The notes under the pieces are model-generated. The model was not told the origin of the DNA. It did no database searches and was given only the letters and a program-made list of their open reading frames with translations. This document shows, piece after piece, positions 1-17,944 of a stretch of DNA of 30,006 nucleotides. How positions within the stretch are numbered: position 1 is the first letter of the stretch; every line of letters begins with the position of its first letter. Made by a program: the position numbers and the translations under genes. Source of the DNA: an uncultured archaeon (GTDB lineage: Archaea > Asgardarchaeota > Thorarchaeia > Thorarchaeales > Thorarchaeaceae); NCBI GenBank assembly GCA_964590575.1, contig CAZPWM010000025.1:7670-37675 (forward strand), in the 5' to 3' direction.

Positions 1-415
1 AGGTGATGAAGAACCTCTTGACTGTAGACCTGCTGACATGTTAGAACCTGAATTGCCTGCTGCCCGTGAGGCGCTGAAAGACATTCCACATGTTCCTAGA
101 GACCTCGTTTCATACGCACTCTATCCTCAATATGCCTTAGACTTTCTGAAGCGTAAGGCTCAGCGAATGAGTCGTGGTACAATGACCTCCGAACTTGAAG
201 TGGCACTTGCTGCAGCAGTTCTCCATATGAACGGTGCAGGACCTGGAGCAATAACTGCTACCTCTGGTCGCGCCCAAACCTGGAGTGACGTTGGCAGGTC
301 CGATCTTGTTGATGGGCGAACCGTCCAATACAGTCCTGGACAATGGGAACAGTCATCTTCTGCCTGGTCATCAGCGGGTCGTAAGGACATCATGCGTGGA
401 AGAAGCAGGGGGTAA
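1..415 (+). CDS. 3' end of pyruvate/oxaloacetate carboxyltransferase (PycB/OadA/transcarboxylase 5S-like) with extra C-terminal tail; partial at window edge
   Basis: Frame open from base 2: GDEEPLDCRPADMLEPEL...LVSYALYPQYALDFL matches the conserved 'RPADxLEPE...YALFPQ' end of the carboxylase domain; a BCCP gene follows immediately. Confidence 0.75.
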   Translation, partial: GDEEPLDCRPADMLEPELPAAREALKDIPHVPRDLVSYALYPQYALDFLKRKAQRMSRGTMTSELEVALAAAVLHMNGAGPGAITATSGRAQTWSDVGRSDLVDGRTVQYSPGQWEQSSSAWSSAGRKDIMRGRSRG

Positions 416-944: not shown

Positions 945-2120
945 ATGAACATCATGGAGCCAGTGAATATCATTGGTGCTGGAATGACTCCCTTTGGTAT
1001 TCTGAACGATTCGTTAGTTCAACTGGCTGAAATAGCCTCATTCAAGGCCATGAGTGACTCACAGACCTTAGATTTGAAATTTGACCATCTTGTTGTGGGG
1101 TCACAGAATCCTGATGAGTTCGTCAACAAGGGTCATCTATCCACACTACTAGCCGATAGCTTGGGGATTGTTCCTGCAGGAGCAACCCGGGTGGAAACCG
1201 GTCCTTCCTCGGGCTCAAGCGCGTTCGAAACTGCATTCACAATGATTGCTTCTGGATATTCTGACCTTGTTCTTGTGATTGGTGTAGAGAAGATGTCTGA
1301 GGTGGACCGTGGAACCGCATCGAAGATTCTTGCCAAGATGATGTCATATGAGAATGAGACCCGCTATGGTGCTACACCCACAGCCTTGGCGGCCATGGTC
1401 GCACGTCGCTACATGCACGACTATGGACTCAAACGGGATGAACTCTCTTTACTACCAGTGAAAGCACATCGAAATGGTGCAAAGAATCCGCTGGCTCATT
1501 TCCAAAAGGAAGTCACTATGGAACAGGTCCGCAATGCAAGAGTTATAGCAGATCCGCTCACATTATTCGATTGTTGCCCTACTAGTGATGGTGCAGCTGC
1601 TTTGGCCTTAGCATCTGACAGAATAGTGAGAGACCTTGGTGTTTCGGATCAATCTGTTCGTGTTCTAGGAGTGGGTCATGGAACAGACTATCATGCTATT
1701 CAACATAGACTGTCACTGACATCTTTTGGGGCAACAATAGCTGCTGCTGACGGAGCCTTCTCTATGGCGAAGATCGATCCTACGGATATTGACGTGTGTG
1801 AGCTACACGACGCGTTTTCGATTCTAGAATTAGTGAATATGGAAGATGTCGGACTTGCAAATCGTGGTCAAGCAATTGAAATGGTGAAAGATGGAGCCAC
1901 TAATGTGGATGGTCAAATCCCAGTTAATACAACTGGAGGTCTCAAAGCTCGAGGGCATCCTACAGGAGGAACCGGGGTAGCTCAAATCCATGACATCTAC
2001 TGCCAGCTTTTACAAAAGGCACCAAAGGCTTTGCAGGTGAGTTCTCCAACCATTGGACTTACGCAAAACATAGGTGGTTTTGGCAACAATATGGTGGTTG
2101 GGATTTTCTCTGCTCCATGA
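945..2120 (+). CDS. Archaeal SCP2-type thiolase-family protein; nucleophilic Cys apparently replaced
   Basis: IIGAGMTPFG, GVEKM, NPLAHFQ, DCCPTSDGAAA, ELHDAF, GGLKARGHPTGGTG motifs; VETGPSSG where VExACASG is expected. Confidence 0.9.
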   Translation: MNIMEPVNIIGAGMTPFGILNDSLVQLAEIASFKAMSDSQTLDLKFDHLVVGSQNPDEFVNKGHLSTLLADSLGIVPAGATRVETGPSSGSSAFETAFTMIASGYSDLVLVIGVEKMSEVDRGTASKILAKMMSYENETRYGATPTALAAMVARRYMHDYGLKRDELSLLPVKAHRNGAKNPLAHFQKEVTMEQVRNARVIADPLTLFDCCPTSDGAAALALASDRIVRDLGVSDQSVRVLGVGHGTDYHAIQHRLSLTSFGATIAAADGAFSMAKIDPTDIDVCELHDAFSILELVNMEDVGLANRGQAIEMVKDGATNVDGQIPVNTTGGLKARGHPTGGTGVAQIHDIYCQLLQKAPKALQVSSPTIGLTQNIGGFGNNMVVGIFSAP

Positions 2121-2376: not shown

Positions 2377-3543
2377 ATGCCCGAAGGTCTTGCTGTTCTA
2401 AAATGGGATGATGAGCTTGGACCAGTAGTTACTTCCAAAACACCAAAGAACCTCCAAATTGGATTAGACCCAACTACATCAATGAGGGTCTATGGAATAG
2501 CCACACTTGGTGAAACTGAGGAGTCTCAAAAACCTGGATTCAGCTCTTTAGCATTCAATGATTTCAAACTCGCTGTATATTATGGCGGACTCAATATGCA
2601 TTTGAAAGGTCTACCCTCAATGGTGTTCTTAGTACTCCAATCTGAGGAAGATCCTGATGTTTACAAGGATGCACTTCCAGAGATGGCAACTCAGATTTTT
2701 CTTAATGCAGAGGATGAAGAATACAAGAAGATGGTACCGCGGCTCTACAAACAAATCTCTCGATACACTCAGATGACTGCTGAGCAAAGGCAAGCATCTA
2801 TTCTCAACGATCCAGTGAGAAGAGCCATCATGCAGACGCTAATGAAGAATGGTACTGTCTTATCCACTGACCTTGAACAACTCATCTTTGAAGAAGTTGG
2901 TAAGAAGATTGATGTAGACATAGTCCTGAGACCCCTTGTCAAAATGGGCCTTATCGCTACAGGCTGGGTAGAGGGACTTTCTTCAGAGGTCATCTATCTG
3001 ACACGGGCACTCTTTATACTACGAACAATATCTCAAGATGCCATCAGATCAGTCAGAAAGGGCAAACTACCCACAGATGTTGCTGAAAGTTATCTTCAAA
3101 CATCTAGGAGATATCATCGTGACTATTTAGCTCGGTTGAGGAAAGACCTCTTCGAAACTATATGGACCGAGGCTGAAGAACTATCCAAGTATATGCTTGA
3201 CTTTGAGGCATATGACCTGATTCAAGTCCTAAGAGGTGGTCCACAAGATGCAGACCATCTTCCTGCATTGGTCGACCTCACAGCGGCTAAGCTCAGGAAA
3301 CAGCTTACAACGTTGGAGCAAGCGAATATTGTTACCAGAATCAATGATGAAGACGGGCGTCAATATGTGATTCTAAAATGTAATCCTGAGGTCATGACAG
3401 TTTATCCGGAATGGTTGATTCAAAGAACCGTTGACCTGTACAATGACGAAGAGATTGTCAGTCGACAAGCAATGCACTTTCTTGAGGTCTTAAAGAAGGC
3501 GCATCCAAGTCGCGCTTCTGGTGTTGCAATGGAGGTTAAATAA
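2377..3543 (+). CDS. Longin/uDENN-like N-terminal domain plus two winged-helix-like domains (Asgard-type hypothetical protein)
   Basis: ATG 2377 preceded by GGAGA; N-terminus GLAVLKWDDELGPVV resembles the uDENN/longin 'hhhxxFDxxxGP' start; two wHTH-like segments (RRAIMQTLMKNG...LRPLVKMGLI and LIQVLRGGP...LTTLEQANIV). Confidence 0.6.
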   Translation: MPEGLAVLKWDDELGPVVTSKTPKNLQIGLDPTTSMRVYGIATLGETEESQKPGFSSLAFNDFKLAVYYGGLNMHLKGLPSMVFLVLQSEEDPDVYKDALPEMATQIFLNAEDEEYKKMVPRLYKQISRYTQMTAEQRQASILNDPVRRAIMQTLMKNGTVLSTDLEQLIFEEVGKKIDVDIVLRPLVKMGLIATGWVEGLSSEVIYLTRALFILRTISQDAIRSVRKGKLPTDVAESYLQTSRRYHRDYLARLRKDLFETIWTEAEELSKYMLDFEAYDLIQVLRGGPQDADHLPALVDLTAAKLRKQLTTLEQANIVTRINDEDGRQYVILKCNPEVMTVYPEWLIQRTVDLYNDEEIVSRQAMHFLEVLKKAHPSRASGVAMEVK

Positions 3544-3544
3544 A

Positions 3545-6500
3545 ATGGATCAGAGATATCGACTCCTTCTACTAGTGGGATTCCTCACATTGTTCCTATT
3601 ACCTATAGGTAGTACCAGTCCCACCAAAATGACTACTGATACTCTCCTCACACTCAATGATGGTGCAATCACCTCCGGTTATCAGGATGAGGCTTCCTGG
3701 TGGAATTCCACCTTTATCTACCGACGATATTTCAACTTCACAGAACCAAATGTGAGTGACAGGACCAATGTCCCAATTCATGTCTACCTCACGTTCGATG
3801 AGCAACATTGTTATCGCGATTCCATTCGTGTTATGGAGTTTCAGGACCCGGGTTGGAGCGCTAAGGAATTTCAAGTCTGGAATATTACCTACTATTCTGG
3901 GAACGACTTCGTAAAATCAGCGCGGGTATCCTTCATGATAGATGTCAACCAAGACACTACTGAGGACTGCATTTACATTTACTACGCCAAACAGGATGTA
4001 GGAGTAGTGAGTTATCCAAGCTTCTATCCGTTCATCTACAAAAGCTATACTTTCTCATTGATTAACTTAGTTTCGTACTATGATGATAACAACTACTACC
4101 TCGAGATGTTTGATGATCCTCTCTACGGGGGCGATGGCACCTGGAAAGATCCAAACTTTGTGAATAATGGTGTGGACACTCGCTGGAAGAACTCGCAAGT
4201 GACACCAGACAGCACTCCAAGTGGTACACTTGACAAGTTTGACAATGTTCGGTATGAACCAACAACATCATCCTATAGCGACTTCTTTGGATACTACACT
4301 GTCTATTCTAATTATCCTCTTGCAGTGTCAATGGGTCATGGTGATAAGGGCTCCAATAATGCAATCAACGACTGGTTTCCTGGTGTTGATGAGTATGGTG
4401 AAGGTCTTGGAACTAAATTCATTCTTGGTGGTGTTGAAGGATTCGAAAGCTATAACGAAGGTAAGTACTGGGTACAAGCACATGAGGACAATACTCAGGT
4501 CTATGTATGGACTGCTGGAGATACTCTAGACTCTGGTTGGAGCTTCTATAATGGGACTTCTGTTTCCTTATGGCCAGCTGTCCTCAAGGCTGGAGAATAC
4601 ATCGCAAAACGAGATGTTGTCTATACAACCTACGTGATGGTAAACTCCACTAAACCCGTTTCAGTTCGAGCTGGTGACTCTGACGCAAGATACTCTCGTG
4701 ATATTGGAGGTTTCTTCACATCAGTTACGGGTGATCTTGTTGGCGAAGAGTTCTATACAATTGATATGGGTAACAGCAACGACAGAACTCGTATCACAAA
4801 CATTGGTGTTGCTCCGGTCACAGTCGAGTGGTGGAGAAACACAGGCTCTGGTTGGGTCAAAGGTGTAAATCTCACCAACATTCCCGTAAACAGCTCTGCT
4901 ACTATTTCACAAGGAACATCTAGTGCTTCAAATCCGGAAGATATTCTGAGAATTAGAGCACCTGCTGGTTCAAGGATTTTTGTTGAAGGAGTTTATAATC
5001 CTCCGAATGTCGTGGATTATGGTGATTGGAATCCAACAATGACTGGTAAACGGTTCGGTCTTGATTACAGAATCTGGGGAGGAAGAGGTCAGAAGATATT
5101 CGTCTTTGCATGGGAGAATGCAAAAATAGACATTTCAAGTTATAGTGGCACTTCTTCTCTGGAATTACCAGCTGGTGACGCGGGTTTCTACATGCCCGTG
5201 TCTGCAAGTCAGTCACTTCACGACCTACACTCAAATGCAACAATTAGTGTAGTCGTCTGTGGTTCATTTTCAACTTCAACACCCAATTATCCAAGTGGAG
5301 ACCAAGGATATGGATGGATGGTTCCATCTTATACTCCCGAGGGCGATGAAGCTGGTGTTATTATTTTTGCTAGCGACGAGGTCAAGCTCTTCGAATTTGA
5401 TGTCACTATTGTTGACCTTGATGGATTTCCAGTTGAGGGAGCATTTGTCGAGCTTCTAAATACCGATGATAGTCCCTGGCTAGATGACAATGGTCTTGGC
5501 AGATCTGGTTTGACCAATGTTGATGGACTAATAATCTTCGAGGGTCTCAGTAATCAAACCTTCAGAATTTCTACATCAATTGACGCGGCTACGTGGCTAA
5601 GCACATCATACTCGAATGTCTGGGTAAATGACACAAGCGATAATGGTGTAACAGATTCAGTTACCTACATTGAGATTACCCTCAGCATGGCGAACGTTGA
5701 TCTCTATTTCGAAGACTTGATGCATAATCCGATGGCAGACAATGACAATGAGGATACAACGGTCCGCTTAGTTGAAATGACTGGAGATCCTGCAGACTAT
5801 GTTGCTCAAGCACAGACCAATGCTACTGGAACAGCTCATTTCTATAGAGTACCAAGAAATAATTACGATGTATATGCTCGATATGCAGGTTCGCTAGGGT
5901 GGTCCTACGGATACGACGACATCTCTAACTTCGCAAGATGGTACATTGGCATAACAGAGTTCGACACAGGCAGTTTCAACCACAATTGGGACTTTCCACT
6001 AATTACTCTAGATATTCATGTTGTATCTTGGGATGTGCTTGATGTTGTTGGAGCTTCGATTAAGATAAACAACTCAGTTGACGAGAACGCATATCAAATT
6101 ACTAAGGCGAGTGATGTTTCAGGTGATTATACCTTCTATAGGATTGTTAACGGTACATGGAACCTTGATGTTTGGAAAGCTGATGATTACGCAAACACCC
6201 CTCTAGCTAGGAATTACACAGTTTCACTCAGTGACTTGCAGAGTTATACCTCTGAAATAATTCAACTTCCATTATCGCGCCTTGTTCTACGAGTTCAAAC
6301 TCCTGGATTGGCTAACGTTGAAGGAGCTCAAGTCAATGTCACTCTAAGAGGTGTGGGGTTGGTTGCGCAAGGTACAACAAACAGCACAGGTCATGTAACA
6401 TTTCTGAATATCCACGCAAATCTCTCATACCCATACTCTGTTTCGTACAACGTGACGGTCGTGAAGGGTACTGAACAGAATGGTACGTTCATTGAATTAC

Positions 6501-9500
6501 TTGTGAAATGTGACTTTGATTGGACGTATATCAACAGAATCACAATCACTGAACCCCTCTATAGTGCCGCATACACCGAGCTCAATTCCACTAAATACTT
6601 CATGAATGCTAAATGGGGTCAAAATGCCACCTTCTCTGTGGGTTGGTTCGACCGAACAGGACCCACAACATCTGTAATCACATTTGATTCAACATCATGG
6701 CTAAACTTCACCATCTATCTTGATGGTGCACCTATTGGTTGGGGTAGCTGGACCCAATCTGCTTCTACATGGATCGATGATCCTGTTGGAATATACTTCC
6801 TTGTAACCATCGACACTGATTTCTGGAACTTGGGTATCTCATCCACTGCGTATGTAATAGTAATTGAGGCTGATACCAGTCTGAAGGATGCTCCTGCACC
6901 TATAACTATCTACCTAACAGTTCAAGCAGCGTCAACTTCACAAGGCATCGGAACAGCTAACATTGTCGAATACTATGGCACGCAAGAAGAACATCTCTAT
7001 TGGCTCCACGATACTACAAATGGTTTGAATGTGTCCAATCTTGATGTTTATACTTACTCTGTCAAATATGGTACTCAAGTACTCAAAAGTGGTCTTCTCT
7101 CAAACAATGGCAATGGTACCTACAGTTTGCCAGTCGCAGCTCTAAGTGGTATCAATGTAGGAAACTACTTGGTGTACATTACTCTGCAAAAGGCTAACTA
7201 TATCAATCAGTCCTTCGCGATTGATGCTACACTCAATAACCTCCCATCAGTTGTGGTAATCACTCCAAATCCTGGTTACGAGTGGTCTTTGAGTGCAGAT
7301 GGTATTGTATTCCAATATCAGATTGCATGGAACTCCACTCCGACTGATTTAACCAGTGTCAGTGTAAAGATAGAGTGGGTAACATACCCTGGTGGTGTGT
7401 CGTATCTCAATGTCACTCGGATTCTGAGTGCCAGTGGTGGAGACCTGACGTATGATTTTTACCGCAATCTCGTCCCTGTAGGTAACTGGACAGTCCGAAT
7501 TACCTGCAGCCACGCTAACTATGGTATTGGTGTGGGAACTTTTAGCTTCCTAGATGTATCTGAGGCGACAACCAACCTGACTGTGATACCTCCTTCTGCT
7601 CTGACAGTTGATTGGACTGAACCCGCAATATTCTTTGTTGACTACTTCAGAGGTGGCACTGGACTTGTGGGTGCCCAGGTAACCACAGACTATCCCGGTA
7701 CCGTTGTTGTTAATTATCAAGGGAATGGTAGATATTCAATCGCATTTGATACCGCAATTCCCGCTGATGTCTATATCATCTCAGTAGGCTTCTCACTAGC
7801 TAATCATGAATCTCAAGAAGACACTGTAACAGTCACGATTAGAACTCCAATCACAATCGAAACAGACTTCGGATCTGAAGAAACTCCGTTAATTGCTTAT
7901 TGGACGCGAACCTTCGATATTGTCGTCAGATTGATGGATTCATCACGAGTTGACACAAACATTACTGGTGCAATGATTACCTATGATTGGGACCTACCGG
8001 TCTTCATTGCCTCAGGGAGTCTCACTGAGGTGCCCGGAATGCCTGGACTATATGGTATTACCCTTCTGGGAAGTCAAGCCAGTCCATTGATTAATGAGTA
8101 TCAAATCACACTTATTGCAACAAAAGGTACCTCATCAGCTACAGCAACTATTTTTCTAGTGATTCAGGATGTGCCTAATGAGATAATTCTCTCACACAAA
8201 CTCTTCAGAACTTACTTTGGAGACATCGCTACAGTCTGGTTCTATTGGAACAATACGCTTGACAATGCACCTATTATCCTTCCAAGCTCCGTCATTTTTC
8301 AGATCATACCGCTTGGTACAGGTATTAGTGGAGTTACCAACTATGGAAATGGCTCTTACAGTTTCGTTGTGGATACTCTATACCTTGGAATGAATGTTGA
8401 TGACTTTGATGGATTCTATCCAGTGTCAATCACAATGCTAGCTGATGGCTTTGCAACTGGTACTGAAGAGGTCTACTTCTTAATGAGCGAAAGTCCAACC
8501 AATTTGGACTTGGTTGGTCCTGTTGAAGCGGAATGGTCTGAGGATATGACTGTCAAAGTCAATCTACGTGACACATTACATGATGTGTTGGTATGGGATG
8601 GTGCTACTGTGGAACTTGTTTATGGTACCTATATCGTTCCTATGTTTTCATATGGAAACGGAACATTCTGGGTAACCTTTGATTCTGCAGCGTATTTCTC
8701 TGCAAGTGAAACTCCATACGATGTAACAGTTAGGTATTCCATTCCTAACTATGTTGATGGTGATATTGCGATTGAGGTTCAAGTTAACCCCGTTCTCTGT
8801 GAGATCCATATCATTACCGGTCATCTCCAAGATAATGTCTATAATGGTACATGGACTGATTCTGTGGAGGTCCAGTTCTGGGTGTTATATGCTGGAGAAG
8901 TAACCCATCCACCTGAAGGAATTGGAACCTACTCTTGGGTAGGTTATCCATCTGTAGGTGGTACTTTCAACTTCGCTAGTCTAATCTATACACTTTCAAT
9001 AGATACCACTGAGGTGCCTGCAGGTATAAGGACACTAAGATTGTTCATGACTCTTCAAAACCATACTGTGACACCATATGATATTACATTTGTATTGGAT
9101 CCTCTGACTGCTGATTTGGACACCGAAACAACAGACCTGGAAGTTGTATATGATTCCACTGACAGTATTTCACTCACTTTCGATTTGACCTATGGTGGAT
9201 CTCCATTGACTGGTGCAACAATCAGTTTTGAACTGGGAGGCATAACCTTCCAGCACTCTTCAACACCCGCACCTGGTCAGTATAATTTCGCTATCACACC
9301 TACCCTTGTTTCTGGTCTCATTGCTCCAGAAACTTACCTGTTGAACTTCACGGTGACTCTGCAGAACTACACAACCACCATGACACAGATACCTTTGATC
9401 TTGTTAGCGCCAACAACTCTGACATTTGATGATGAGATTACAATAGAGTATGGTAGTATAATCACCGTATACTTTGCATACTGGGACACGCTCAATAACC

Positions 9501-10591
9501 AAGCCGTTCCTGGTGGTGTCGTCACTGCTCAGCTACCCGATGGGTCGAATCTACCTGTTGAAGTTTACAATTCAACGCACTTTGCAGTGGTTATTACAGC
9601 CGCAGACGTGGGTGAGATTAGGACTGCTGCATACGAAATTGCATTCATTGCAAATGCGTCTCTGTATGAATCATACACCGGCGCAGATGTCTACCGGTTG
9701 ACCGTTTATGTCAGTGAACCAACATACAACTTTGGTCTACTCGGTAGGTATTCAAAGACTACAGTCAATACGATAATGCTAATGACGCTTCTATTTGGAA
9801 TAATGGTTAGTGGTGTCGTGGCAGTCAGACGCATGCGGATTCCATACCAAATTAAGCAGATTGACAAGGCATTGAACCAGATTGAGAAAGGTAAGACTGC
9901 TAAGGTCGAGAAGATCAAGACCATGGGCATGGTTGTGTCTGAATTACTGGCCCCCGGCCTTGCAGAACTTGACATTGCAGCTCCAGTCATCGAGGCTGGA
10001 CCTGACGATGTTGGTGAGGTTATCTTCGATGAGGATGCTGGTGAGCTACTTGATGAACTTGATGCCCTGGATGACCTAGGCGTTGAGGAAGAAGTTGATA
10101 CAGATGAGCCTGACTTTGAAGCTGAACTTGAAGCCGAGCTTGAAACTATTGAAGCTCCTGAAGTAGAGGATGAACCTCAAGCAGCTGAGGTCGAAGCTGA
10201 AGAACCTGAAGAGGAAGTACCTGAACCAGAACCCGAAGTAGTTGAGGAAGCGATTGAGGAAGCTGAAGCAGAAGAGTCTGAGCCTGAGGTTGAGCTCGAA
10301 GAAACAGAGCTGGACGAAATTGAGGAAGAGGCGGATCTCGAGGAAGCAATTCCTGAGTCAGGACCTGAAGATGTCGAGGTAGTTGAAGCACCACCTGAAG
10401 ACGCTCCTGAGGACTTAGAAGTCACTGAATCAGATGCTGAAGAGTCTATTACGAAGTTAAGCAAGAAAGAAATGATTGACCTTCTGCCTCCTGAAATCAA
10501 AGAACGCTATCCTATAGAAGAACTAAGGAAGCTCAGTAAGAAGGAGCTTCAGGAACTTCTCGACTACATGGATGCAGTTGATGAGGTATAA
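3545..10591 (+). CDS. Giant (~2348 aa) single-pass cell-surface glycoprotein: signal peptide, DUF2341-like and IgGFc-binding-like N-terminal region, beta-sandwich repeats, TM helix, acidic tail, C-terminal helical module
   Basis: RYR + hydrophobic signal; WWNSTFIYRR (DUF2341-like); AHEDNTQV/LKAGE/STKPVSV (IgGFc-binding-like); repeated 'VEGAxV...TNxxG' and 'GNGTY/GNGSY'; many N-x-S/T sequons; TM near 9765-9825 followed by RRMR; ~150-200 aa Glu-rich tail. Confidence 0.85.
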   Translation: MDQRYRLLLLVGFLTLFLLPIGSTSPTKMTTDTLLTLNDGAITSGYQDEASWWNSTFIYRRYFNFTEPNVSDRTNVPIHVYLTFDEQHCYRDSIRVMEFQDPGWSAKEFQVWNITYYSGNDFVKSARVSFMIDVNQDTTEDCIYIYYAKQDVGVVSYPSFYPFIYKSYTFSLINLVSYYDDNNYYLEMFDDPLYGGDGTWKDPNFVNNGVDTRWKNSQVTPDSTPSGTLDKFDNVRYEPTTSSYSDFFGYYTVYSNYPLAVSMGHGDKGSNNAINDWFPGVDEYGEGLGTKFILGGVEGFESYNEGKYWVQAHEDNTQVYVWTAGDTLDSGWSFYNGTSVSLWPAVLKAGEYIAKRDVVYTTYVMVNSTKPVSVRAGDSDARYSRDIGGFFTSVTGDLVGEEFYTIDMGNSNDRTRITNIGVAPVTVEWWRNTGSGWVKGVNLTNIPVNSSATISQGTSSASNPEDILRIRAPAGSRIFVEGVYNPPNVVDYGDWNPTMTGKRFGLDYRIWGGRGQKIFVFAWENAKIDISSYSGTSSLELPAGDAGFYMPVSASQSLHDLHSNATISVVVCGSFSTSTPNYPSGDQGYGWMVPSYTPEGDEAGVIIFASDEVKLFEFDVTIVDLDGFPVEGAFVELLNTDDSPWLDDNGLGRSGLTNVDGLIIFEGLSNQTFRISTSIDAATWLSTSYSNVWVNDTSDNGVTDSVTYIEITLSMANVDLYFEDLMHNPMADNDNEDTTVRLVEMTGDPADYVAQAQTNATGTAHFYRVPRNNYDVYARYAGSLGWSYGYDDISNFARWYIGITEFDTGSFNHNWDFPLITLDIHVVSWDVLDVVGASIKINNSVDENAYQITKASDVSGDYTFYRIVNGTWNLDVWKADDYANTPLARNYTVSLSDLQSYTSEIIQLPLSRLVLRVQTPGLANVEGAQVNVTLRGVGLVAQGTTNSTGHVTFLNIHANLSYPYSVSYNVTVVKGTEQNGTFIELLVKCDFDWTYINRITITEPLYSAAYTELNSTKYFMNAKWGQNATFSVGWFDRTGPTTSVITFDSTSWLNFTIYLDGAPIGWGSWTQSASTWIDDPVGIYFLVTIDTDFWNLGISSTAYVIVIEADTSLKDAPAPITIYLTVQAASTSQGIGTANIVEYYGTQEEHLYWLHDTTNGLNVSNLDVYTYSVKYGTQVLKSGLLSNNGNGTYSLPVAALSGINVGNYLVYITLQKANYINQSFAIDATLNNLPSVVVITPNPGYEWSLSADGIVFQYQIAWNSTPTDLTSVSVKIEWVTYPGGVSYLNVTRILSASGGDLTYDFYRNLVPVGNWTVRITCSHANYGIGVGTFSFLDVSEATTNLTVIPPSALTVDWTEPAIFFVDYFRGGTGLVGAQVTTDYPGTVVVNYQGNGRYSIAFDTAIPADVYIISVGFSLANHESQEDTVTVTIRTPITIETDFGSEETPLIAYWTRTFDIVVRLMDSSRVDTNITGAMITYDWDLPVFIASGSLTEVPGMPGLYGITLLGSQASPLINEYQITLIATKGTSSATATIFLVIQDVPNEIILSHKLFRTYFGDIATVWFYWNNTLDNAPIILPSSVIFQIIPLGTGISGVTNYGNGSYSFVVDTLYLGMNVDDFDGFYPVSITMLADGFATGTEEVYFLMSESPTNLDLVGPVEAEWSEDMTVKVNLRDTLHDVLVWDGATVELVYGTYIVPMFSYGNGTFWVTFDSAAYFSASETPYDVTVRYSIPNYVDGDIAIEVQVNPVLCEIHIITGHLQDNVYNGTWTDSVEVQFWVLYAGEVTHPPEGIGTYSWVGYPSVGGTFNFASLIYTLSIDTTEVPAGIRTLRLFMTLQNHTVTPYDITFVLDPLTADLDTETTDLEVVYDSTDSISLTFDLTYGGSPLTGATISFELGGITFQHSSTPAPGQYNFAITPTLVSGLIAPETYLLNFTVTLQNYTTTMTQIPLILLAPTTLTFDDEITIEYGSIITVYFAYWDTLNNQAVPGGVVTAQLPDGSNLPVEVYNSTHFAVVITAADVGEIRTAAYEIAFIANASLYESYTGADVYRLTVYVSEPTYNFGLLGRYSKTTVNTIMLMTLLFGIMVSGVVAVRRMRIPYQIKQIDKALNQIEKGKTAKVEKIKTMGMVVSELLAPGLAELDIAAPVIEAGPDDVGEVIFDEDAGELLDELDALDDLGVEEEVDTDEPDFEAELEAELETIEAPEVEDEPQAAEVEAEEPEEEVPEPEPEVVEEAIEEAEAEESEPEVELEETELDEIEEEADLEEAIPESGPEDVEVVEAPPEDAPEDLEVTESDAEESITKLSKKEMIDLLPPEIKERYPIEELRKLSKKELQELLDYMDAVDEV

Positions 10592-10596
10592 CCACC

Positions 10597-11481
10597 ATGA
10601 TACGAGAGATACACATCTTCAAAGATGGCCAGACACTATTTGAAGACGTCATAGTTCCTAACAAGGACCTCGACACATCAGCAGTGATGATGCTAGTTTC
10701 TTCTTCAGCTCAGAAACTCCAAGAGTGGAAGATTGACAGCATGGAGATTGAGCGTTATCGCTACGTCTACATGAACTCCCATAACACGCAATTCATTGTA
10801 ACAATGGACCGTCAAGCATCTCTTCAGAAAGTGATTGAGGCTATGATGGATCTTGTGTCCAAGTTCATGACTGTATTTGAGAGTACTCTTGAATCTAATG
10901 AATGGAAGTCAACTGATTTTTCACCGTTCGGTATAGGTTTCAGAAAGGTTGTTGGAAAGATTCCTGTGAAGATGTGTCTAGCAGGACATGGTGGTACTGG
11001 GAAAACTACTCTGCTCGAGCTGGCAACCCTTCCATCGCGAGGTCCACCTCAAGAGTATGTGCCCACGTTTTTTGGTGATAAAGCATTCCTCAAGGCTGAT
11101 TTCGACCCCTATATCTTCAGTATTTTCGATTTAGGAGGCCAAGATCGATTCGTGCAGGAGTGGGGGAAGATCATCCGATCCGGCAGTCTTGTAGTACTTG
11201 TTACTGACTCTACCAAGGAAAACCTAGCCTGGACAAAGCGTGTTGCATATCCAGTGTTAAGAGCTGAACTGCCATATGCAAGAGCAATAGCAATAGCAAA
11301 CAAACAAGACTTGCAAGGGGCGCTATCACCTGAAGAGGTCGGAAAGAAACTAGGTGTGCCAGCTTATGGAATGCAGGCAAACCAGCGAGATTTCAGAGAC
11401 CGATGGTTGAAACTACTGAGAGCAGTGGCCTTTGAAGAGGTTGACTTTACAATAGTCGGTGAGATTGTGGAGGTAGATTAG
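10597..11481 (+). CDS. Longin domain fused to an Arf/Rab-like small GTPase
   Basis: G1 GHGGTGKTT, G2 YVPT, G3 DLGGQDRF, G4 ANKQD; the N-terminal ~120 aa have the longin beta-beta-alpha-beta-beta-beta-alpha pattern (IREIHIFKDG...YRYVYM...FIVTMD...LVSKFMTVF). Confidence 0.85.
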   Translation: MIREIHIFKDGQTLFEDVIVPNKDLDTSAVMMLVSSSAQKLQEWKIDSMEIERYRYVYMNSHNTQFIVTMDRQASLQKVIEAMMDLVSKFMTVFESTLESNEWKSTDFSPFGIGFRKVVGKIPVKMCLAGHGGTGKTTLLELATLPSRGPPQEYVPTFFGDKAFLKADFDPYIFSIFDLGGQDRFVQEWGKIIRSGSLVVLVTDSTKENLAWTKRVAYPVLRAELPYARAIAIANKQDLQGALSPEEVGKKLGVPAYGMQANQRDFRDRWLKLLRAVAFEEVDFTIVGEIVEVD

Positions 11482-11482
11482 A

Positions 11483-12055
11483 ATGTCAGATCCAAGTAAT
11501 TTTACGAAAAGTGTCGTAACTGAAGAAGAACGAAAACGTTTGATTGGTGAGATTGGACGCATAAAGGAAACTCTTGACAGCTTCAAGTACGGTTTAAACT
11601 TCGAAGAATTCGCTGACGAGCTGTTCAAAACAGTTGACAGACAAACATTAGCCATAAAGAAACTCGATGAGAAGATGACCGATATTGTCGAGAGAATGGA
11701 ACGACTGGAACGACGCTTCAATGAAGGTATCAAAGTTGCAGTATCCGGAGCTGTTGGTTCGGATTCTAGGCAAGTCAGTGAAAGCGGTGACGTGATTCTG
11801 GATGAACTTTCGACCAAGAAGGATGTACCAGTAGCTGAACCCGTGCGGGATGAAAACCATGAAACCCTTGAAAAAGAAATTGGAGATTTGAAAATCAAGA
11901 TAGGCCGACTCTTTGAGAAAGAAAATGAGCTTGAAGAGATGACTATGAATGACCCTGCTGGTGCCAAAGAGTACGAGGAAAAGGCAGGTACTGCGCGAGA
12001 AATGAGGAGAGGCCTTGAAGAAAAGCTGAAAGAGCTGGAAGGCAAACTCCGGTAA
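11483..12055 (+). CDS. Coiled-coil hypothetical protein (two helical blocks separated by a linker)
   Basis: E/K/L-rich heptads at both ends; starts 1 nt after the GTPase stop. Confidence 0.7.
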   Translation: MSDPSNFTKSVVTEEERKRLIGEIGRIKETLDSFKYGLNFEEFADELFKTVDRQTLAIKKLDEKMTDIVERMERLERRFNEGIKVAVSGAVGSDSRQVSESGDVILDELSTKKDVPVAEPVRDENHETLEKEIGDLKIKIGRLFEKENELEEMTMNDPAGAKEYEEKAGTAREMRRGLEEKLKELEGKLR

Positions 12056-12067
12056 AGGTGAGTAGGA

Positions 12068-12424
12068 ATGGGTTTATTCGACAGATGGAGACGAAAGAAA
12101 ACGCCTGCACCACAACCTGTGGCAAGGCTTCACGAAACTACTAAAATTAAATCTGCAGCATCAGTTGAGGCTCCGGACATCGAGAGCGGACCTGAAACGA
12201 TTACATCTCTTCTTGGGAAGTACGAGGGTTTAGTTCAACGTCGTGAAGAGCTTAAAGTAGAACGAGAGGACCTCACACGAAAACTAGAGGATGGAAAACT
12301 TGAGGCAGCTGAGTTCAGAAAGGAACTCATGGCTAGGATTCAGGAAGCCGCACAGGTTTCAGAGAATCTGAGGGAAACCACAGTGAAACTCACTCAGGTT
12401 GGTTATCGCGGAACTCTAAGCTAA
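12068..12424 (+). CDS. Small protein with N-terminal basic amphipathic motif and C-terminal helical hairpin
   Basis: AGGTGA RBS at 12056-12061; MGLFDRWRRKK; hairpin ...KLEDGKLEAAEFRKEL... Confidence 0.7.
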   Translation: MGLFDRWRRKKTPAPQPVARLHETTKIKSAASVEAPDIESGPETITSLLGKYEGLVQRREELKVEREDLTRKLEDGKLEAAEFRKELMARIQEAAQVSENLRETTVKLTQVGYRGTLS

Positions 12425-12435
12425 GGTGAATATTC

Positions 12436-13857
12436 GTGTCGGACCGAAACAATCCTGAGAACACAGGTTCTGAACAGTCCGACTTGGAGAGAGAAACCCA
12501 ACGGTTGATGGATGAAGCCATGGGCGCGCGAGCGTCTGCAGAATCAGTAGCGCCTGAAGAAAAACAAACTGAACAAATAGATGTGACCTTCCAGAGGCTT
12601 CAAACACGAATGGAGGATCTTCTATCTACAATCGAGGATGCTTTAAGCTCAGTGGGACCTGATTTAGATTCTAAGACCGCACAAATCTATGCATCATTAA
12701 GTAAAAAGCTAGCTAATGCAGGTTTAGGTGTGTTTGCAACAGGAGCTGCAAAGTTAGTCAAGGACGAACTCGAATCTGAACTCTCTGTCGAGGCTGTTTT
12801 CGCACCAGTCCGTGAAGCAATTGAGAAGAGCAAAGCAACTATTGCTGATGTGATTGAAAAGACTGGGAAGGGTGCAGTCCGTAATATTGGGCAAGCATCT
12901 GGAAATGTTCAGGCAAAATTACTGCAAATGTACGCTAAACTCAGCGAGATGGACAAGCAATTAGAAACAGCTCGTGGTGAAGTTCGTAAATGGCGAGGAA
13001 AATCCAACGAGCTTGAGGAACGAATGCGCCACCGAGAGGATCTGATGTCACAGTCAAGTGAGGAAATGGTTCGGATGCACGATAGCATCAAGGACCTCAA
13101 TGCACAATTGCAGGAAAGAGATGATGTAGTTTCTCAACTGAAAGGTGAGTTAGGGCAAGCACAGTCGCAAGCTGAGCAGCAAAAAGAGCTGTTGAAGGCA
13201 CTAGACTCAGCAGAGCAGGTGGCAACTGATTATGAATCTAAAGTGCTCGAGCTGTCACAATTACAAGGCCAGCTCGCACAAGTAAACGAGCAACTCGGAC
13301 AAAAGGAAGCAGAACTATTGGTACTTCGGTCTGACCTAGAACAGCTAAAGCAAGAGAAAATTACTGCTGACTCTCAAATAATCGAGATGTCTGACAAACT
13401 TGCATCGTTGACCGGTTCTGAGAGAGACTATCAGGCGGAAGTTGATGAGATGAATGCCAAAGTGGCTGAATTACAGGCTCGTTGGGACACGCTCTATAGG
13501 GTTGCGGAGGATGACCCGACTTTCAAAGCATACTTCCTTGTTGCAGACAAGACTCAGTGGTTCCAACTACCACATCTCTCTTCTGCCCTAGGAATACCCA
13601 CTGTATTACTCAAAAGGAATTTACAGAAATTCGTTGAAGCAGGTCTTTTGGAGATCGAAGGAGACCGTGTCCGACCTCGCAGTCTGTCTGACTTGGTTTC
13701 GGATGTTGAATCCTCTGAGGAAACTTTACTTGAAAATGCTCGTGCAGAGTCTGATGGTAGTGCAACTGAATCCCTTGACCCCTCAGATTTGATCATGCCA
13801 ACACCTGAATATACAGGTCCTGAGAAGGGTGATGATTACGAACAGGAAGGAAGATAG
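12436..13857 (+). CDS. Long coiled-coil protein with C-terminal winged-helix and acidic tail
   Basis: GTG start with AGGTGA at 12424-12429; ~200 aa continuous heptads; LPHLSSALGIPTVLLKRNLQKFVEAGLLEIEGDRV is wHTH-like; no Walker motifs. Confidence 0.75.
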   Translation: MSDRNNPENTGSEQSDLERETQRLMDEAMGARASAESVAPEEKQTEQIDVTFQRLQTRMEDLLSTIEDALSSVGPDLDSKTAQIYASLSKKLANAGLGVFATGAAKLVKDELESELSVEAVFAPVREAIEKSKATIADVIEKTGKGAVRNIGQASGNVQAKLLQMYAKLSEMDKQLETARGEVRKWRGKSNELEERMRHREDLMSQSSEEMVRMHDSIKDLNAQLQERDDVVSQLKGELGQAQSQAEQQKELLKALDSAEQVATDYESKVLELSQLQGQLAQVNEQLGQKEAELLVLRSDLEQLKQEKITADSQIIEMSDKLASLTGSERDYQAEVDEMNAKVAELQARWDTLYRVAEDDPTFKAYFLVADKTQWFQLPHLSSALGIPTVLLKRNLQKFVEAGLLEIEGDRVRPRSLSDLVSDVESSEETLLENARAESDGSATESLDPSDLIMPTPEYTGPEKGDDYEQEGR

Positions 13858-14200
13858 ATTGGTTAGGACACTAGAAGAAGTCATGCGTTTTCTTGAGAAC
13901 TATACACTTGCCTGGCATCATTGGTTGATGCTCTTGTCACTTCTCAAACTTGGTGGAAGTGGCACAAAATCTCAGATTCTCCCAGTCTATAAGAAAGAGG
14001 GCTTCTCTCCACATGCAATTGATAAAGTATTCCAGACCGATTTGGAAGACCTAGGCGAAGCTGTTGAGGTGGAAGACGGTATTAGTAATCTTACCGAACG
14101 TTCAACAATCTACCTCACAGAGAATCTGAAATTTAGGAAATTTTTGAAGAAGCACCTCAAATCTGTCGTGAGCACATTCAAGACTCGCAGTCGAGCTTGA
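13832..14200 (+). CDS. Hypothetical protein, probable winged-helix fold
   Basis: Overlaps the previous gene by 26 nt (ATG 13832, or GTG 13829); LLSLLKLGGSGTKSQI...IYLTE pattern resembles a wHTH. Confidence 0.65.
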   Translation: MITNRKEDRLVRTLEEVMRFLENYTLAWHHWLMLLSLLKLGGSGTKSQILPVYKKEGFSPHAIDKVFQTDLEDLGEAVEVEDGISNLTERSTIYLTENLKFRKFLKKHLKSVVSTFKTRSRA

Positions 14201-14223
14201 TTGAACTATGGTTGGTGGTATGA

Positions 14224-14463
14224 ATGAAGGACCCACCCGACTCTCCACTGGATTCGGAAGATTCTATTGTTGAATCAAATAGTCAACAATCAGAGGATTC
14301 TTGTGAGCAAGATTTTCCTGAGAGCCTATCGAAACTCACGAAACGAGAATTATTAGATCTCATTCCCGCTGAGATTAAAGAGAGCACCTCTCTATCTGAT
14401 TTGAAACGATTATCAAAACAAGAATTACTTGCTCTTGTTGAAACTATTTTGGTCCAGGAATAG
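14224..14463 (+). CDS. 79 aa acidic protein carrying a copy of the giant surface protein's C-terminal module
   Basis: GGTGG RBS; LSKLTKRELLDLIPAEIKESTSLSDLKRLSKQELLALV aligns without gaps to the end of 3545..10591. Confidence 0.7.
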   Translation: MKDPPDSPLDSEDSIVESNSQQSEDSCEQDFPESLSKLTKRELLDLIPAEIKESTSLSDLKRLSKQELLALVETILVQE

Positions 14464-14549: not shown

Positions 14550-14882
14550 ATGTTAGGGAAGTCAATAACCAGCTCAAAGTGTAGCCTTTGTGATAGAGTG
14601 ATAGTCCCTCCAAGAGAGACCTGTCCATATTGTGGAAAGAGTGCAGGTCCTATGGAAATAGTGGCGTTATCTAATCGAGGAGTTGTTCAAAGTTACACTA
14701 CTCTTCAGATGCCCCCAGAAGGTTTTGAGGCTCCTTTGTCATTGGCACTTGTAGAACTCGAAAAAGGAGCATTGATCTTGTGCTTAGCCAATGAGCAATT
14801 TTGGTCCCCGCTAAATATCGGAGATCAAGTCGAGATACAAGTTGACTCTAAAGATAGATTCTGTTATCGGACCATTAGATGA
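14550..14882 (+). CDS. Zn-ribbon/OB-fold protein (DUF35, thiolase partner)
   Basis: KCSLC...PPRETCPYCG zinc ribbon; GVVQSYTT...PPEGFEAP...ALVEL...IGDQV OB-fold. Confidence 0.85.
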   Translation: MLGKSITSSKCSLCDRVIVPPRETCPYCGKSAGPMEIVALSNRGVVQSYTTLQMPPEGFEAPLSLALVELEKGALILCLANEQFWSPLNIGDQVEIQVDSKDRFCYRTIR

Positions 14883-14947: not shown

Positions 14948-16117
14948 ATGGTTAACTATCTTTCTAATGTTCTTTGGACTGATGATGAAATAACCTTTAG
15001 ACAAAAGGTACAGGAGTTTTGTGCGAAGGAGATTGCACCTGTTGCGGATGAAATAGACAAAGGTCCTTATCCCCGTGAGCTCCTAAGAAAAATCGGAAAA
15101 GCTGGTTACATGGGTGTTCACCATGACAAATCTGTTGGCGGGACCGAATGTGGTCTCTCCTATGAGATCATAGTTGCTGAAGAGATTTCCGCTGTTAATG
15201 GCGGTCTCGATATGGCTAGGATGGCATCAACTACCCTTTATGGCATGCCTGTCGCTCGATTTGGTACTAATGAACAGAAGAAGAAGTACCTAGAACCAGT
15301 TGTGGCTGGCGACAAGATTGGGTGTATCGGGATAACAGAACCTGATGTGGGGAGTGATACAGCTGGAATGAAGACGCAGGCTGTGAAAGATGGGGACGAC
15401 TGGATTCTCAACGGTGAGAAGAGATTCATCACCAATGGGAGTCAAGCTGACTTCATGTGCGCATTTGCTATTACAGAACCCGCGGTCAAATCTAAGGAGG
15501 GAATGTCTGCATTCATCATTGATACAACTATGGATGGATTTAGCGTTATTCAGGACCACGACCTTCTTGGAATGAAATCAGCACGAGTTTCATGGTTAAA
15601 GTTTGAGGATCTCCGTGTGCCTGGAGATATGCTCCTTGGAAAGCCTGGGGCAGGGTTCCACATCCTTATGGATGAGCTCGACTCAGAGAGAACAGCAATT
15701 GCAGGCGAGGCAATTGGTTATGCAAGAACTCCCTACGAGATCGCAGTCAAGTACGCAACCGAACGTCATCAGTTTGGTAGGCCTATCCGTGCATTTGAGG
15801 GAGTGAGTTTCAAAATCGCTGACATGGCCATGAAACTAGAGGCTGGTCGTGCACTCACACTCACTGCAGCACGAATGTATGATCGTGGTGAAAATATTAC
15901 CAAAGAAGCTTCTATTGCCAAGCTATATACAACCGAGGCTGCTGTCCAAATCACAAATGATGCCCTGCAGATACTTGGTGGCATGGGTTATACAACAGAC
16001 TATCCAATCGAGCGCTTCCTAAGAGACGCTCGTTTAATGACAATTGGTGGAGGGACTGCAGAAATTCTCCGTTTCTTAATCCAGCGAGAGGTCTTCAAAG
16101 AATTCTTTCCTGGCTGA
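14948..16117 (+). CDS. Acyl-CoA dehydrogenase
   Basis: ITEPDVGSD, LNGEKRFITNG, RHQFGRPI, QILGGMGY, IGGGTAEI motifs. Confidence 0.95.
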   Translation: MVNYLSNVLWTDDEITFRQKVQEFCAKEIAPVADEIDKGPYPRELLRKIGKAGYMGVHHDKSVGGTECGLSYEIIVAEEISAVNGGLDMARMASTTLYGMPVARFGTNEQKKKYLEPVVAGDKIGCIGITEPDVGSDTAGMKTQAVKDGDDWILNGEKRFITNGSQADFMCAFAITEPAVKSKEGMSAFIIDTTMDGFSVIQDHDLLGMKSARVSWLKFEDLRVPGDMLLGKPGAGFHILMDELDSERTAIAGEAIGYARTPYEIAVKYATERHQFGRPIRAFEGVSFKIADMAMKLEAGRALTLTAARMYDRGENITKEASIAKLYTTEAAVQITNDALQILGGMGYTTDYPIERFLRDARLMTIGGGTAEILRFLIQREVFKEFFPG

Positions 16118-16156: not shown

Positions 16157-17944
16157 CTAATTTTTGACTATTGCTACGATTCTATACATGTTACCAACCA
16201 TCTGGATTGTTGCTGTGAAACTATCACTAACATCAATCTCTAAGAGTAGAGTGTACCAGTCAGTCAAATTCATCCAGTCACGAGCTCCCTCAAGGTATGG
16301 ATATGTTGCATTGTCCGTACCTAAAACGATACGCAGATTTGAGTCTACAGTGTCAAAGGCTTTGCTGACAACAGTAGCTGTCATATTGAATGTATCTGAT
16401 AGCTCAGGTTCAATGCTACCACCAAAGAGTTTTACATACTCTGAACGTGTTTGGTACACCAATTCCTCGCCTGAGATTTCTCCTCCCAGAGGTACCCACT
16501 TAAACCGGTCTATGTTTGAGGCATCAACCATTCCTAACGCATGAAGGCGCATATTTGTGGCGGTGTACTCCTCAGTGTCGGAATCATAGTAGAAATCCGC
16601 CCAGTAGATTGGAGCATACCATGTCCACTTGGTCAGGGTGGAGTTGATAACAACCGGATAGAGAAGAGGCATAGCTCCATAGTATATTCCACTTGCTGGA
16701 GCACCAATATCCGCTACAACATTAGCCGCAGCAGCGTCACCGCTGACATAACCAAACTCACTCAGATCATGGTAATAGACAGCATCTTTTGTCGCTCTGA
16801 ATACACCTGCTAAGGTTCGAGATGAAGTCACAGGATTCATTGCAATGAAAGCCTCAACTCGGTTTGTGTCAGGATTGAGTATGTAACGAGTGTCCTCATG
16901 TATCTCTAACCTATCATTCGATGGTGGAATAAACCACAACAGACCCCCTGCAAAGAGGTCGAAACCGTTTCCACGACGATATCCACCCCATCTTGATATC
17001 TGGCGTTCTAAGTATTCTTCACCATACGCTTGAGTTACCCAGTCTGGGGTTTCTGCGATTGAGGCGTAACTAAAGACGGTGCCATTCTCTGCATATACAA
17101 TCGGACCTGTTGCTCTCTCTACAAAATCGAATCCCAGTGGTGTTCGTGTTTGAACATACACCAGTGAACCTGAAGGATCCCATGTGGGATATGCATATTG
17201 ATAGCTAGAGGTCATGTCATTGAGGTAGTTGCCAAACTGAATATTCTTGTCCCAGAACAAACCTTCACCAACTGGAATTGTAGTATTTAAAATGAGATGT
17301 GGCTCTATTGTTTGAGGGTCATTAGCATCAATAACAATGAATCCCTTCACATAATTCTCAGCCAATACATTGGTCGACACTATCGTGCATACCCACACTA
17401 GCGTCCCATTTGGGTTTGTAGTAATATGTGCTGCAGCAACAAAAACGTTGGAACCGAAAGGCGACATGTGTTGACCCGCCACGTATTTGGCATATTCCTC
17501 TGTAACCAGTCTAACCTTGTTATCTGCAATCGTGTTATTGAATAGTGGCTCATCGGTTACAATTATTTGAGAATTGAAAAATTCTGCATTAGAAACGTCT
17601 GCGGTCCAACTAATAATCCCAGAAAATGCTGGTATGATTATGATGATAATCATTCCAACACAGGTGAGTGGGACCCTTATGCCCTCCAGTACGTCCTCGA
17701 TTGCACCACCCCGAAACCCACTTGAAACCACTAATAATGCACCAAAGCTAATTATGAGAGTTACGACCGCCCAAGGAAGGGTGGACATCATTAGCAAACA
17801 AATAATGGCCCATGCAGCTGTTCCCCAAACGAGTCGAAAAGGAAGCCATTTGATCAGTCGATTTGGCCGCAACATTTCTTGTCTGAAGGGGATTGGAATC
17901 GCATGAACTATCAAGCTTATTAGAAGAAAGACTAGTACGTTCAT
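16157..17944 (-). CDS. Membrane protein: about 4 N-terminal TM helices and a large extracytoplasmic domain
   Basis: ATG at 17944 with GAGAGGT RBS (ORF-track start 18103 overlaps leuD); hydrophobic N-terminus, then a sequon-rich soluble domain. Confidence 0.7.
   Translation of the reverse strand: MNVLVFLLISLIVHAIPIPFRQEMLRPNRLIKWLPFRLVWGTAAWAIICLLMMSTLPWAVVTLIISFGALLVVSSGFRGGAIEDVLEGIRVPLTCVGMIIIIIIPAFSGIISWTADVSNAEFFNSQIIVTDEPLFNNTIADNKVRLVTEEYAKYVAGQHMSPFGSNVFVAAAHITTNPNGTLVWVCTIVSTNVLAENYVKGFIVIDANDPQTIEPHLILNTTIPVGEGLFWDKNIQFGNYLNDMTSSYQYAYPTWDPSGSLVYVQTRTPLGFDFVERATGPIVYAENGTVFSYASIAETPDWVTQAYGEEYLERQISRWGGYRRGNGFDLFAGGLLWFIPPSNDRLEIHEDTRYILNPDTNRVEAFIAMNPVTSSRTLAGVFRATKDAVYYHDLSEFGYVSGDAAAANVVADIGAPASGIYYGAMPLLYPVVINSTLTKWTWYAPIYWADFYYDSDTEEYTATNMRLHALGMVDASNIDRFKWVPLGGEISGEELVYQTRSEYVKLFGGSIEPELSDTFNMTATVVSKAFDTVDSNLRIVLGTDNATYPYLEGARDWMNLTDWYTLLLEIDVSDSFTATIQMVGNMYRIVAIVKN

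Follow-up and report, generated by a model that had tools for sequence, protein, structure and literature searches.

We analysed a 30,006-nt window of contig C25 of a Thorarchaeota-type metagenome-assembled genome (3.4 Mb, 91% complete) that occurs in sediments of the salt-marsh type, and within it a cluster of eight genes, G1 to G8 (Table 1), which an earlier reading of the same DNA (the original prediction) had taken for an operon joining a giant surface protein to longin, GTPase and coiled-coil proteins. The open reading frames confirmed eight co-oriented genes with gaps of 1, 5, 1, 12, 11, -26 and 23 nt, and Pfam and NCBIfam scans assigned no metabolic family to any of them, as had been claimed. 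The receptor-like protein with a cytoplasmic tail (G2), the small GTPase fused to a longin domain (G3), the second longin protein (G1) and the free copy of the receptor's tail module (G8) were likewise borne out by the analyses below.

Table 1. Features of the G1-G8 cluster, its flanks and its paralogues. Positions are nucleotides of the window unless marked aa (residues of the protein named) or given with another contig of the same genome.
Feature	Position	Strand	Remarks
G1	2377-3543	+	388 aa, from the ATG used in the original prediction
G1 longin domain	aa 1-132	+	invariant W10-D11-x3-G15-P16
G1 winged-helix domains	about aa 146-190 and 276-333	+	predicted model, fold matches
G2	3545-10591	+	2348 aa
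G2 signal	aa 5-26	+	hydrophobic N-terminus
G2 transmembrane segment	aa 2073-2095, nt 9761-9829	+	hydropathy
G2 cytoplasmic tail	aa 2096-2348 (253 aa)	+	37% Asp+Glu
G2 juxtamembrane motif	9830-9994	+	R-I-P-x-x-I-K-x-I-D type
G2 C-terminal helix-pair module	10442-10588	+	L-S-K-K-E-L type twice; copied in G8
G3	10597-11481	+	294 aa
G3 longin domain	aa 1-118	+	fold match
G3 Arf-family GTPase domain	aa 123-294	+	Pfam Arf
G4	11483-12055	+	190 aa
G5	12068-12424	+	118 aa
G6	12436-13857	+	473 aa
G7	13832-14200	+	122 aa
G8	14224-14463	+	79 aa
Thiolase	945-2120		upstream flank of the cluster
DUF35/ChsH2-type zinc-ribbon and OB-fold protein	14550-14882		downstream flank
Acyl-CoA dehydrogenase	14948-16117		downstream flank
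648-aa protein	16157-18103	-	no Pfam match at E 0.01
Paralogous pair (L104)	C87:2834-5466		G1-like gene, then Arf-family GTPase gene
Paralogous pair (L105)	C4:54833-58288		G1-like gene, then Arf-family GTPase gene

In the structural model of G1 (predicted local distance difference test, pLDDT, 68.4; 80-91 over the first 130 residues, in the longin blocks), a canonical longin domain comes first, then one winged helix and, after a helical linker, a second. The top match in an exhaustive structure comparison was the GATOR1 chain 8fw5_B (Z 11.8, root-mean-square deviation (rmsd) 2.5, 122 residues aligned), which from its length would be NPRL2, and the next were the Lokiarchaeota longin 8yqg_B (Z 11.1) and the SEA-complex chain 8adl_S (Z 10.9). 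Residues 254-349, which hold the second winged helix, matched winged helix-turn-helix (wHTH) domains of the ArsR/SmtB type (Z about 9), and at the sequence level the same domain gave Pfam HTH_20 at 7e-4 (below the cut-off) and PDB profile matches at 0.006. DENND1A aligned with the longin part only (residues 1-132), the C-terminal half being winged helix. Foldseek with the G1 model returned nothing at E 0.001 or better, with MarR-type and GATOR1 chains at 1e-3 to 5e-3, and an ESM Atlas search returned only unnamed Asgard clusters. Passages of PMC3747258 define NPRL2 and NPRL3 by a longin domain with two or more wHTH repeats; because a longin domain and then two winged-helix domains match this definition, the modelled architecture of G1 is of the NPRL2/NPRL3 type, without sequence-profile membership in NPR2 (PF06218). 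The residues W10, D11, G15 and P16 are invariant in all 21 aligned G1 sequences of Thorarchaeota (Thor). According to the relevant passages of PMC12290439, the GP motif is specific to longin subunits of GTPase-activating proteins (GAPs) and some Asgard longins, the corresponding residues of C9orf72 being W33-D34 and G38-P39; within Thor, G1 carries this motif of NPRL2, FLCN, SMCR8 and C9orf72. The G1 profile matched 185 of 301 sampled Asgard genomes, often several times per genome, and 250 representative clusters of a 1.8-billion-protein library.

G3 passes the Pfam Arf family (PF00025) with 44.4 bits against a cut-off of 22.3 (E 1.6e-11) and scores best as Arf, Ras/Rab-type families staying below their cut-offs, as does SRPRB, the SR-beta family (14.3 bits against 25). 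A PDB profile search was led by 8oun_A (1.9e-12) and then Arf1 (4.6e-12). The P-loop, the switch-I residue T157 and the D-x-x-G-Q and N-K-x-D motifs are invariant in 22/22 aligned sequences. The G3 model has a pLDDT of 63 and its GTPase half is poorly modelled, whereas the fold of the N-terminus (residues 1-123) is that of a longin domain, matching VAMP7 (VIA; Z 14.8, rmsd 2.1, 113 residues aligned), Sec22 (Z 13.1) and the SRX domain of SR-alpha (Z 12.6 and 12.4). The N-terminus of G3 is thus a 118-residue longin domain in place of the amphipathic membrane helix typical of Arf proteins. R72, which follows strand 4 of this domain, is invariant and is at most a candidate arginine finger.

G2 carries 40 N-x-S/T sequons and has, from its hydropathy, a single-pass type-I topology. 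Pfam searches gave only sub-threshold Ig-like and CarboxypepD_reg matches, and no PDB sequence matched at E up to 1. The protein is partly homologous to giants encoded beside G1-like genes in other Asgard families, and its juxtamembrane motif is common to those giants, whether fused to a G1 module or not. In the genome of the window G2 is the sole giant with this type of tail. Six other giant single-pass proteins of that genome (955 to 5176 aa; contigs C13, C72, C26 and C1) have a different conserved juxtamembrane tail, of the type S-V-P-K-R ... K-G-K-I-P-K-P, which suggests several classes of giant tail, each perhaps with its own cytoplasmic partners. G8 consists of an acidic stretch and a terminal module with 45% identity to the G2 tail over its final 49 residues (E 6e-12). 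None of the 37 Thor loci described below has G8 as a free gene, and it is free-standing only in this genome; the module itself occurs in 16 of 28 genomes of the genus, nearly always closing a frame of 1292-4048 residues. Its best foreign match is 69% identical, above the 41-45% to the tail of G2 itself. Because G8 is free only here, its module otherwise ends giant frames and its best match is foreign, G8 is a lineage-specific fragment or free copy of a giant's tail end that lies outside the conserved set.

The remaining genes encode smaller proteins, three of which (G4, G5 and G6) had been called coiled-coil proteins and one (G7) wHTH-like. The former assignment holds best for G6, which narrowly passes DUF7491 (30.6 bits against a cut-off of 30, E 3.9e-7) and also gives SMC-like coil matches; for the helical, coiled-coil-like G4 and for G5 it depends on sub-threshold Pfam coiled-coil matches. 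The alignment of 25 G5 sequences shows an invariant N-terminus of the M-G-L-F-D-x-W-R-R-K-K type, hydrophobic and then polybasic, a variable linker and conserved C-terminal helices. An amphipathic helix at this N-terminus was considered and dropped, its moment not exceeding that of shuffled sequences, and the description as a hydrophobic plus polybasic patch was kept. G7, with an invariant W-H-H-W-L motif in 24 aligned sequences, has no Pfam match, and its wHTH-like character, resembling small winged-helix regulators of archaea, comes from ESM Atlas look-alikes, found with a language model, that are named 'Transcriptional regulator' (score 0.93). The C-terminus of G6, which is wHTH-like, gave a faint signal against the second winged helix of G1 (hhalign probability 44.7, E 2e-4); the hhalign probabilities of G7 with the G6 C-terminus (0.7) and with the C-terminal half of G1 (0.3), of G4 with G6 (5.1) and of G5 with G4 (0.6) were null results.

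To place the cluster among its relatives, 37 Thor loci were collected by a search with G3 and their layouts scored by protein-to-DNA comparison and gap sizes. The full order G1-G2-G3-G4-G5-G6-G7 of the window was found in 20 of the 37, and 12 show a reduced order, G1-G3-G5-G7. Contig ends cut four loci, and among the 33 that could be scored the sole mixed case is L002, which has neither G2 nor G4 and keeps G6. G4 was found only where G2 is present, the two co-varying in 33/33 scorable loci. G2, G4 and G6 are interleaved among the other genes yet vary together. The cluster is therefore modular, with a core (G1-G3-G5-G7), an accessory set (G2-G4-G6) and G8 as an extra. On a maximum-likelihood tree of G3 (41 rows: the window, the 37 loci and 3 outgroups), the reduced state requires 4 changes; branches with good support make four necessary, and bootstrapping gives a range of 4-4. 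Four losses are not proven by this tree, because it is that of a single gene. Wherever a Thor locus covers both G1 and G3, the two genes are neighbours. Protein identity is 71-92% for G3 over 36 Thor loci (55% in L035) and 64-87% for G1, and G2 is far more variable (30-59%). The genes flanking the cluster are metabolic, encoding a thiolase, a DUF35/ChsH2-type OB-fold protein and an acyl-CoA dehydrogenase; G1 and G3 are conserved to the same degree as these neighbouring enzymes (thiolase 64-86%, acyl-CoA dehydrogenase 77-89%). The most divergent locus with the Thor order (L035:9992-14848) reads G3-G4-G5-G6, a 510-aa protein and G7; the N-terminus of the 510-aa protein resembles the start of G1, and this locus has no giant and no upstream G1.

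The gene order thus survived a synteny search in Thor, and G1-G3, in part followed by G5, recurs in other Asgard families as well. For these families we took a census of 40 loci around high-scoring G1 matches from 40 genomes, scored uniformly and containing 50 G1-like genes, in which a giant was defined as a protein of at least 900 residues (or cut by the contig end) that carries a signal and one C-terminal membrane anchor, with a tail in the cytoplasm. An adjacent co-directional giant was found for 35 of the 50 G1-like genes and an adjacent Arf-type GTPase for 24, 11 of these 24 with a recognisable longin domain of the G3 type; two of the other GTPases gave Pfam Arf matches of 4e-20 and 2.5e-18. 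One or the other neighbour was present at 46/50 G1-like genes, the remaining four being two G1-G5 pairs and two genes at contig ends, and all 33 giants in the census loci adjoin a G1-like gene. Giant-G1 pairs also stand in tandem, up to three of them in a Loki-type genome (L095), where a convergent gene for an Arf-type GTPase follows the second pair. The census giants share parts with G2, nearly all of them the juxtamembrane motif, and have differing ectodomains, either Laminin_G_3 (3e-55) with DUF2341 or Ig/InlK-type domains. The order G1-G3-G5, with G5-like genes in the last place, recurs in three families (f7, f13 and f19) and G1-G3 in two more (f8 and f15). In four loci of families f3 and f13 (L054, L064, L082 and L083) a gene of 140-161 aa stands between the G1-like gene and the giant; this small gene gave no Pfam match in the two loci scanned (L054 and L064). 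The tails of the f3 giants are without the usual juxtamembrane motif.

Eight further loci, picked for a G1 match inside a long open frame and left out of the census, were examined for fusions. Seven frames in five of these loci (L070-L074) carry a whole G1 module about 85 residues behind a transmembrane segment: three giants of 2648-3009 residues, one frame of 1012 residues or more that is cut by a contig end, and three anchored proteins of 599-703 residues in which only a short stretch precedes the membrane anchor. The same build, with the tail motif between anchor and G1 module, was seen in 9 of the 150 library representatives listed. We take these frames to be fusions of neighbouring giant and G1 genes. 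G1-like modules were also found fused to SIR2 plus TPR domains (P0181 and P0191) and to a TIR domain (P0231); these are three of the 47 representatives that were scanned. The genome of the window encodes two further pairs of a G1-like protein and an Arf-family GTPase on other contigs (Table 1), without giants; their GTPases have 283 and 666 aa and give Pfam Arf matches of 2.9e-19 and 2.2e-21. In the pair on contig C87 a 190-aa coiled-coil gene comes next, which has no similarity to G4 (E 0.095).

Because the gene order is kept in Thor, the pairings recur in other families, giants adjoin G1-like genes and the two are found fused, the comparison of sequences supports the view that more than chance links the surface protein with the longin protein and the longin-GTPase. 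Of the one complete machine that had been proposed, this link stands, and a fixed eight-gene unit does not. We favour a reading of the cluster as a surface-protein-coupled small-GTPase switch, to which we give a probability of roughly 0.6. It builds on the domain folds, the GTPase motifs, which are intact, the neighbourhoods kept between genomes, the fusions and the gain or loss of G2, G4 and G6 as a group, and it borrows its mechanism by analogy from NPRL2-NPRL3, C9orf72-SMCR8 and related longin platforms. G2 would be a giant glycosylated single-pass protein serving as adhesin or receptor, variable in its ectodomain and conserved in its juxtamembrane tail, at which G1 may work as a cytoplasmic NPRL2-like adaptor. 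The longin domain of G1 would pair with that of G3 to form a longin-dimer platform, as in eukaryotic GAP complexes and those of GEFs (guanine-nucleotide exchange factors), which hold their GTPase on such a platform, and this platform would set the nucleotide state of the Arf-like domain of G3 itself. G5, which may bind the membrane through its hydrophobic and polybasic N-terminus, and G7 would complete a core able to work without an adjacent giant, and G4 and G6 may be coiled-coil scaffolds needed only where a giant is present. The free tail fragment G8 could be a decoy, a regulator or a relic. Signalling may run in either direction, as outside-in sensing or as inside-out control of the surface protein. 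A wider version, in which an NPRL2/C9orf72-like longin adaptor that controls a dedicated, membrane-localised Arf-like GTPase reads or steers variable giants through their conserved inner tails across the Asgard phylum, is a tentative extension that we think possible and rather doubtful.

Several results weigh against the switch. Conservation inside Thor is by itself weak evidence, because the flanking metabolic genes are syntenic too. In 12 Thor loci the core is kept without an adjacent giant. The census drew its loci from the best-scoring matches, and they are not a random sample. A second giant of this genome with a G8-like tail end is not beside such a module. G1 has no match at E 0.1 to Pfam NPR2, NPR3, folliculin or C9orf72, and none of 47 G1-family representatives matches these families at 1e-3. 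Outside Thor, T or A mostly replaces the P of GP, which occurs in only 16 of 82 representatives with W-D-x3-G. No arginine is invariant in the G1 longin domain at the site tentatively assigned to a GAP arginine finger (near residues 68-80), the invariant or near-invariant residues there being H75 and K77. The longin domains of G1 and G3 have no mutual profile similarity (hhalign probability 0.1), and the N-terminus of G5 has no significant amphipathic moment (shuffle fractions 0.51 and 0.47 for residues 2-12 and 2-15).

The strongest of the other explanations is membrane-linked control of transcription, in which the winged helices of G1, G6 and G7 would bind DNA and the giant would be a ToxR/CadC-type regulator of its own cluster, acting through its tail or a fused G1 module with the longin domain and the GTPase as modulators. 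The likeness of the second G1 winged helix to ArsR/SmtB/MarR repressors, in the matches given above, and the names of the G7 look-alikes would fit such a role, as would the Loki-type giants that each bring their own G1-like gene, as dedicated regulators often do. Every sequence match to a helix-turn-helix family is below its curated cut-off, however, and NPRL2 and NPRL3 share the longin plus wHTH build and are not known as DNA-binding regulators, although the partner of their wHTH domains might be DNA, RNA or protein according to the relevant part of PMC3747258. DNA binding also leaves the very conserved Arf-like GTPase unexplained, and we consider this explanation unlikely.

Two further explanations are more improbable still. 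G3 could be an SRX-SR-beta-like device that, with G1, inserts, sorts or positions the giant glycoprotein without relaying any signal. The match of its longin domain to SRX (6frk_y and 2go5_1, at 15-16% identity) is in keeping with this, but the longins of VAMP7 and Sec22 score higher (Z 14.8-13.1); likewise the weak Pfam SRPRB matches (0.027 for G3, 0.0038 and 0.0023 for the GTPases of the paralogous pairs) are set against an SRPRB score far below cut-off where Arf passes. The link of the module with very large exported proteins also speaks for such a device, yet the 12 reduced Thor loci have the core and no giant, and a fused G1 module, made last and behind the anchor, is a poor fit with co-translational targeting of its own chain. 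We hold this explanation to be improbable, and give the same small weight to a recognition or conflict system, in which variable lectin-like or Ig-like ectodomains would sense foreign cells, viruses or kin and G1 would pass the signal to effectors, the GTPase being one output. SIR2, TPR and TIR domains are common in immune and conflict systems, and their fusions to G1-like modules, the wide variation of the ectodomains above a constant tail and the tandem giant-G1 pairs all agree with a role in conflict. Such fusions number only three, though, and, in contrast to typical defence loci with their fast turnover, the core in Thor is single-copy and highly conserved. That the genes form no functional unit and are neighbours only through the generally high synteny of Thorarchaeota, in which the flanking thiolase, DUF35 and acyl-CoA dehydrogenase genes also keep their order, is disfavoured as very improbable, since the same pairings return in further Asgard families whose flanks differ, fused forms of the genes exist, and a set of three interleaved genes was gained or lost as a group four times.

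Thiolase and DUF35/ChsH2-type genes usually work together and stand side by side. Because the whole cluster sits between them, it has the look of an old insertion between two paired genes of lipid metabolism. The placement of these two genes around the cluster is the same in most Thor loci that reach both flanks. The gene for the 648-aa protein on the opposite strand keeps its place downstream of the acyl-CoA dehydrogenase gene in most Thor loci (44-73% identity).

The part families of the cluster are already in print. The parts of Liu et al. (10.1101/2020.10.19.343400) that bear on them report a family with a longin domain and an NPRL2-type C-terminus in most Thor metagenome-assembled genomes, Rag-family GTPases fused to a longin domain, and a conserved operon of a LAMTOR1-like Roadblock protein, a Rab-like GTPase and a DENN protein. 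The present cluster differs from that operon, the C-terminal half of G1 being winged helix where DENN would be expected and G3 being Arf where the operon has a Rab-like GTPase. The corresponding parts of Tran et al. (PMC10933270) describe longin-GTPase architectures close to both Rag and Arf, and state that the GTPase genes of MK-D1 generally do not share an operon with genes for roadblock or longin proteins. Going by these parts of the two papers, G1 and G3 are most likely members of the published NPRL2-like and longin-GTPase sets. The same parts of both texts contain no operon link between these proteins and no link to giant surface proteins, and a full-text literature search, with figures and supplements outside its scope, found no publication linking the set to such proteins. 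The cluster had been put forward as an undescribed system; it is for the link of the giant surface protein with G1 and G3 that this search found no published description.

Asgard genomes encode small GTPases and longin or roadblock proteins by the dozen, with partners and targets still to be found, and whether operons could reveal the targets of these GTPases is posed as an open question in the part of PMC4917890 that deals with them. With this cluster an unexplained eukaryote-like GTPase gains a testable set of partners, for which the evidence of belonging together is comparative (adjacency, fusion and joint loss) and whose link is kept, or even fused, across Asgard archaea. The Arf-like GTPase, the NPRL2-like longin protein, the membrane partner and the small core proteins form a matched set for expression and assay. 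If G1 regulates G3 at the tail of the surface protein, regulatory logic of the eukaryotic type would operate at an archaeal cell surface. If the phylum-wide reading were true, the system would be a prokaryotic forerunner of eukaryotic longin GAP/GEF-GTPase modules and would offer a direct route from cell-cell contact to remodelling of membrane or cytoskeleton in the lineage ancestral to eukaryotes.

Four known systems can be set beside the cluster. Bacterial MglA-MglB is a prokaryotic small GTPase encoded with a Roadblock/longin-type regulator; unlike the proteins described here, MglB is a Roadblock homodimer, to which the fold matches are weaker (Z 8.1-8.2), and the pair has no surface-protein partner and no wHTH domains. 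SR-alpha SRX and SR-beta bring a longin-type domain together with an Arf-like GTPase at a membrane, and SRX is among the top matches of G3, which in contrast is one chain, has no N-terminal anchor of the SR-beta kind and stays below the SRPRB cut-off. The Arf GAP C9orf72-SMCR8-WDR41 shares an Arf-family client GTPase and, in C9orf72, the same W-D-x3-G-P spacing as G1. It differs in a weaker fold match to G1 (7o2w_A, Z 8.5), in having a DENN module where G1 has wHTH domains, in the P of GP, which is not kept outside Thor, and in an arginine-finger subunit like SMCR8, of which none was identified in the cluster. The closest likeness in fold is to GATOR1, in which NPRL2-NPRL3 act on RagA/B: its chain is the top fold match of G1, which is built as a longin domain followed by winged helices over about 380 residues, carries the GP motif between strands 1 and 2 and is encoded with a small GTPase. 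G1 differs from GATOR1 subunits in giving no Pfam NPR2/NPR3 match and in that no arginine finger was identified. The cluster contains neither an NPRL3-like subunit nor DEPDC5; instead, in G3 one chain joins the partner longin to the GTPase, which is Arf-like and not Rag, and the module is tied to a surface protein and not to the lysosome.

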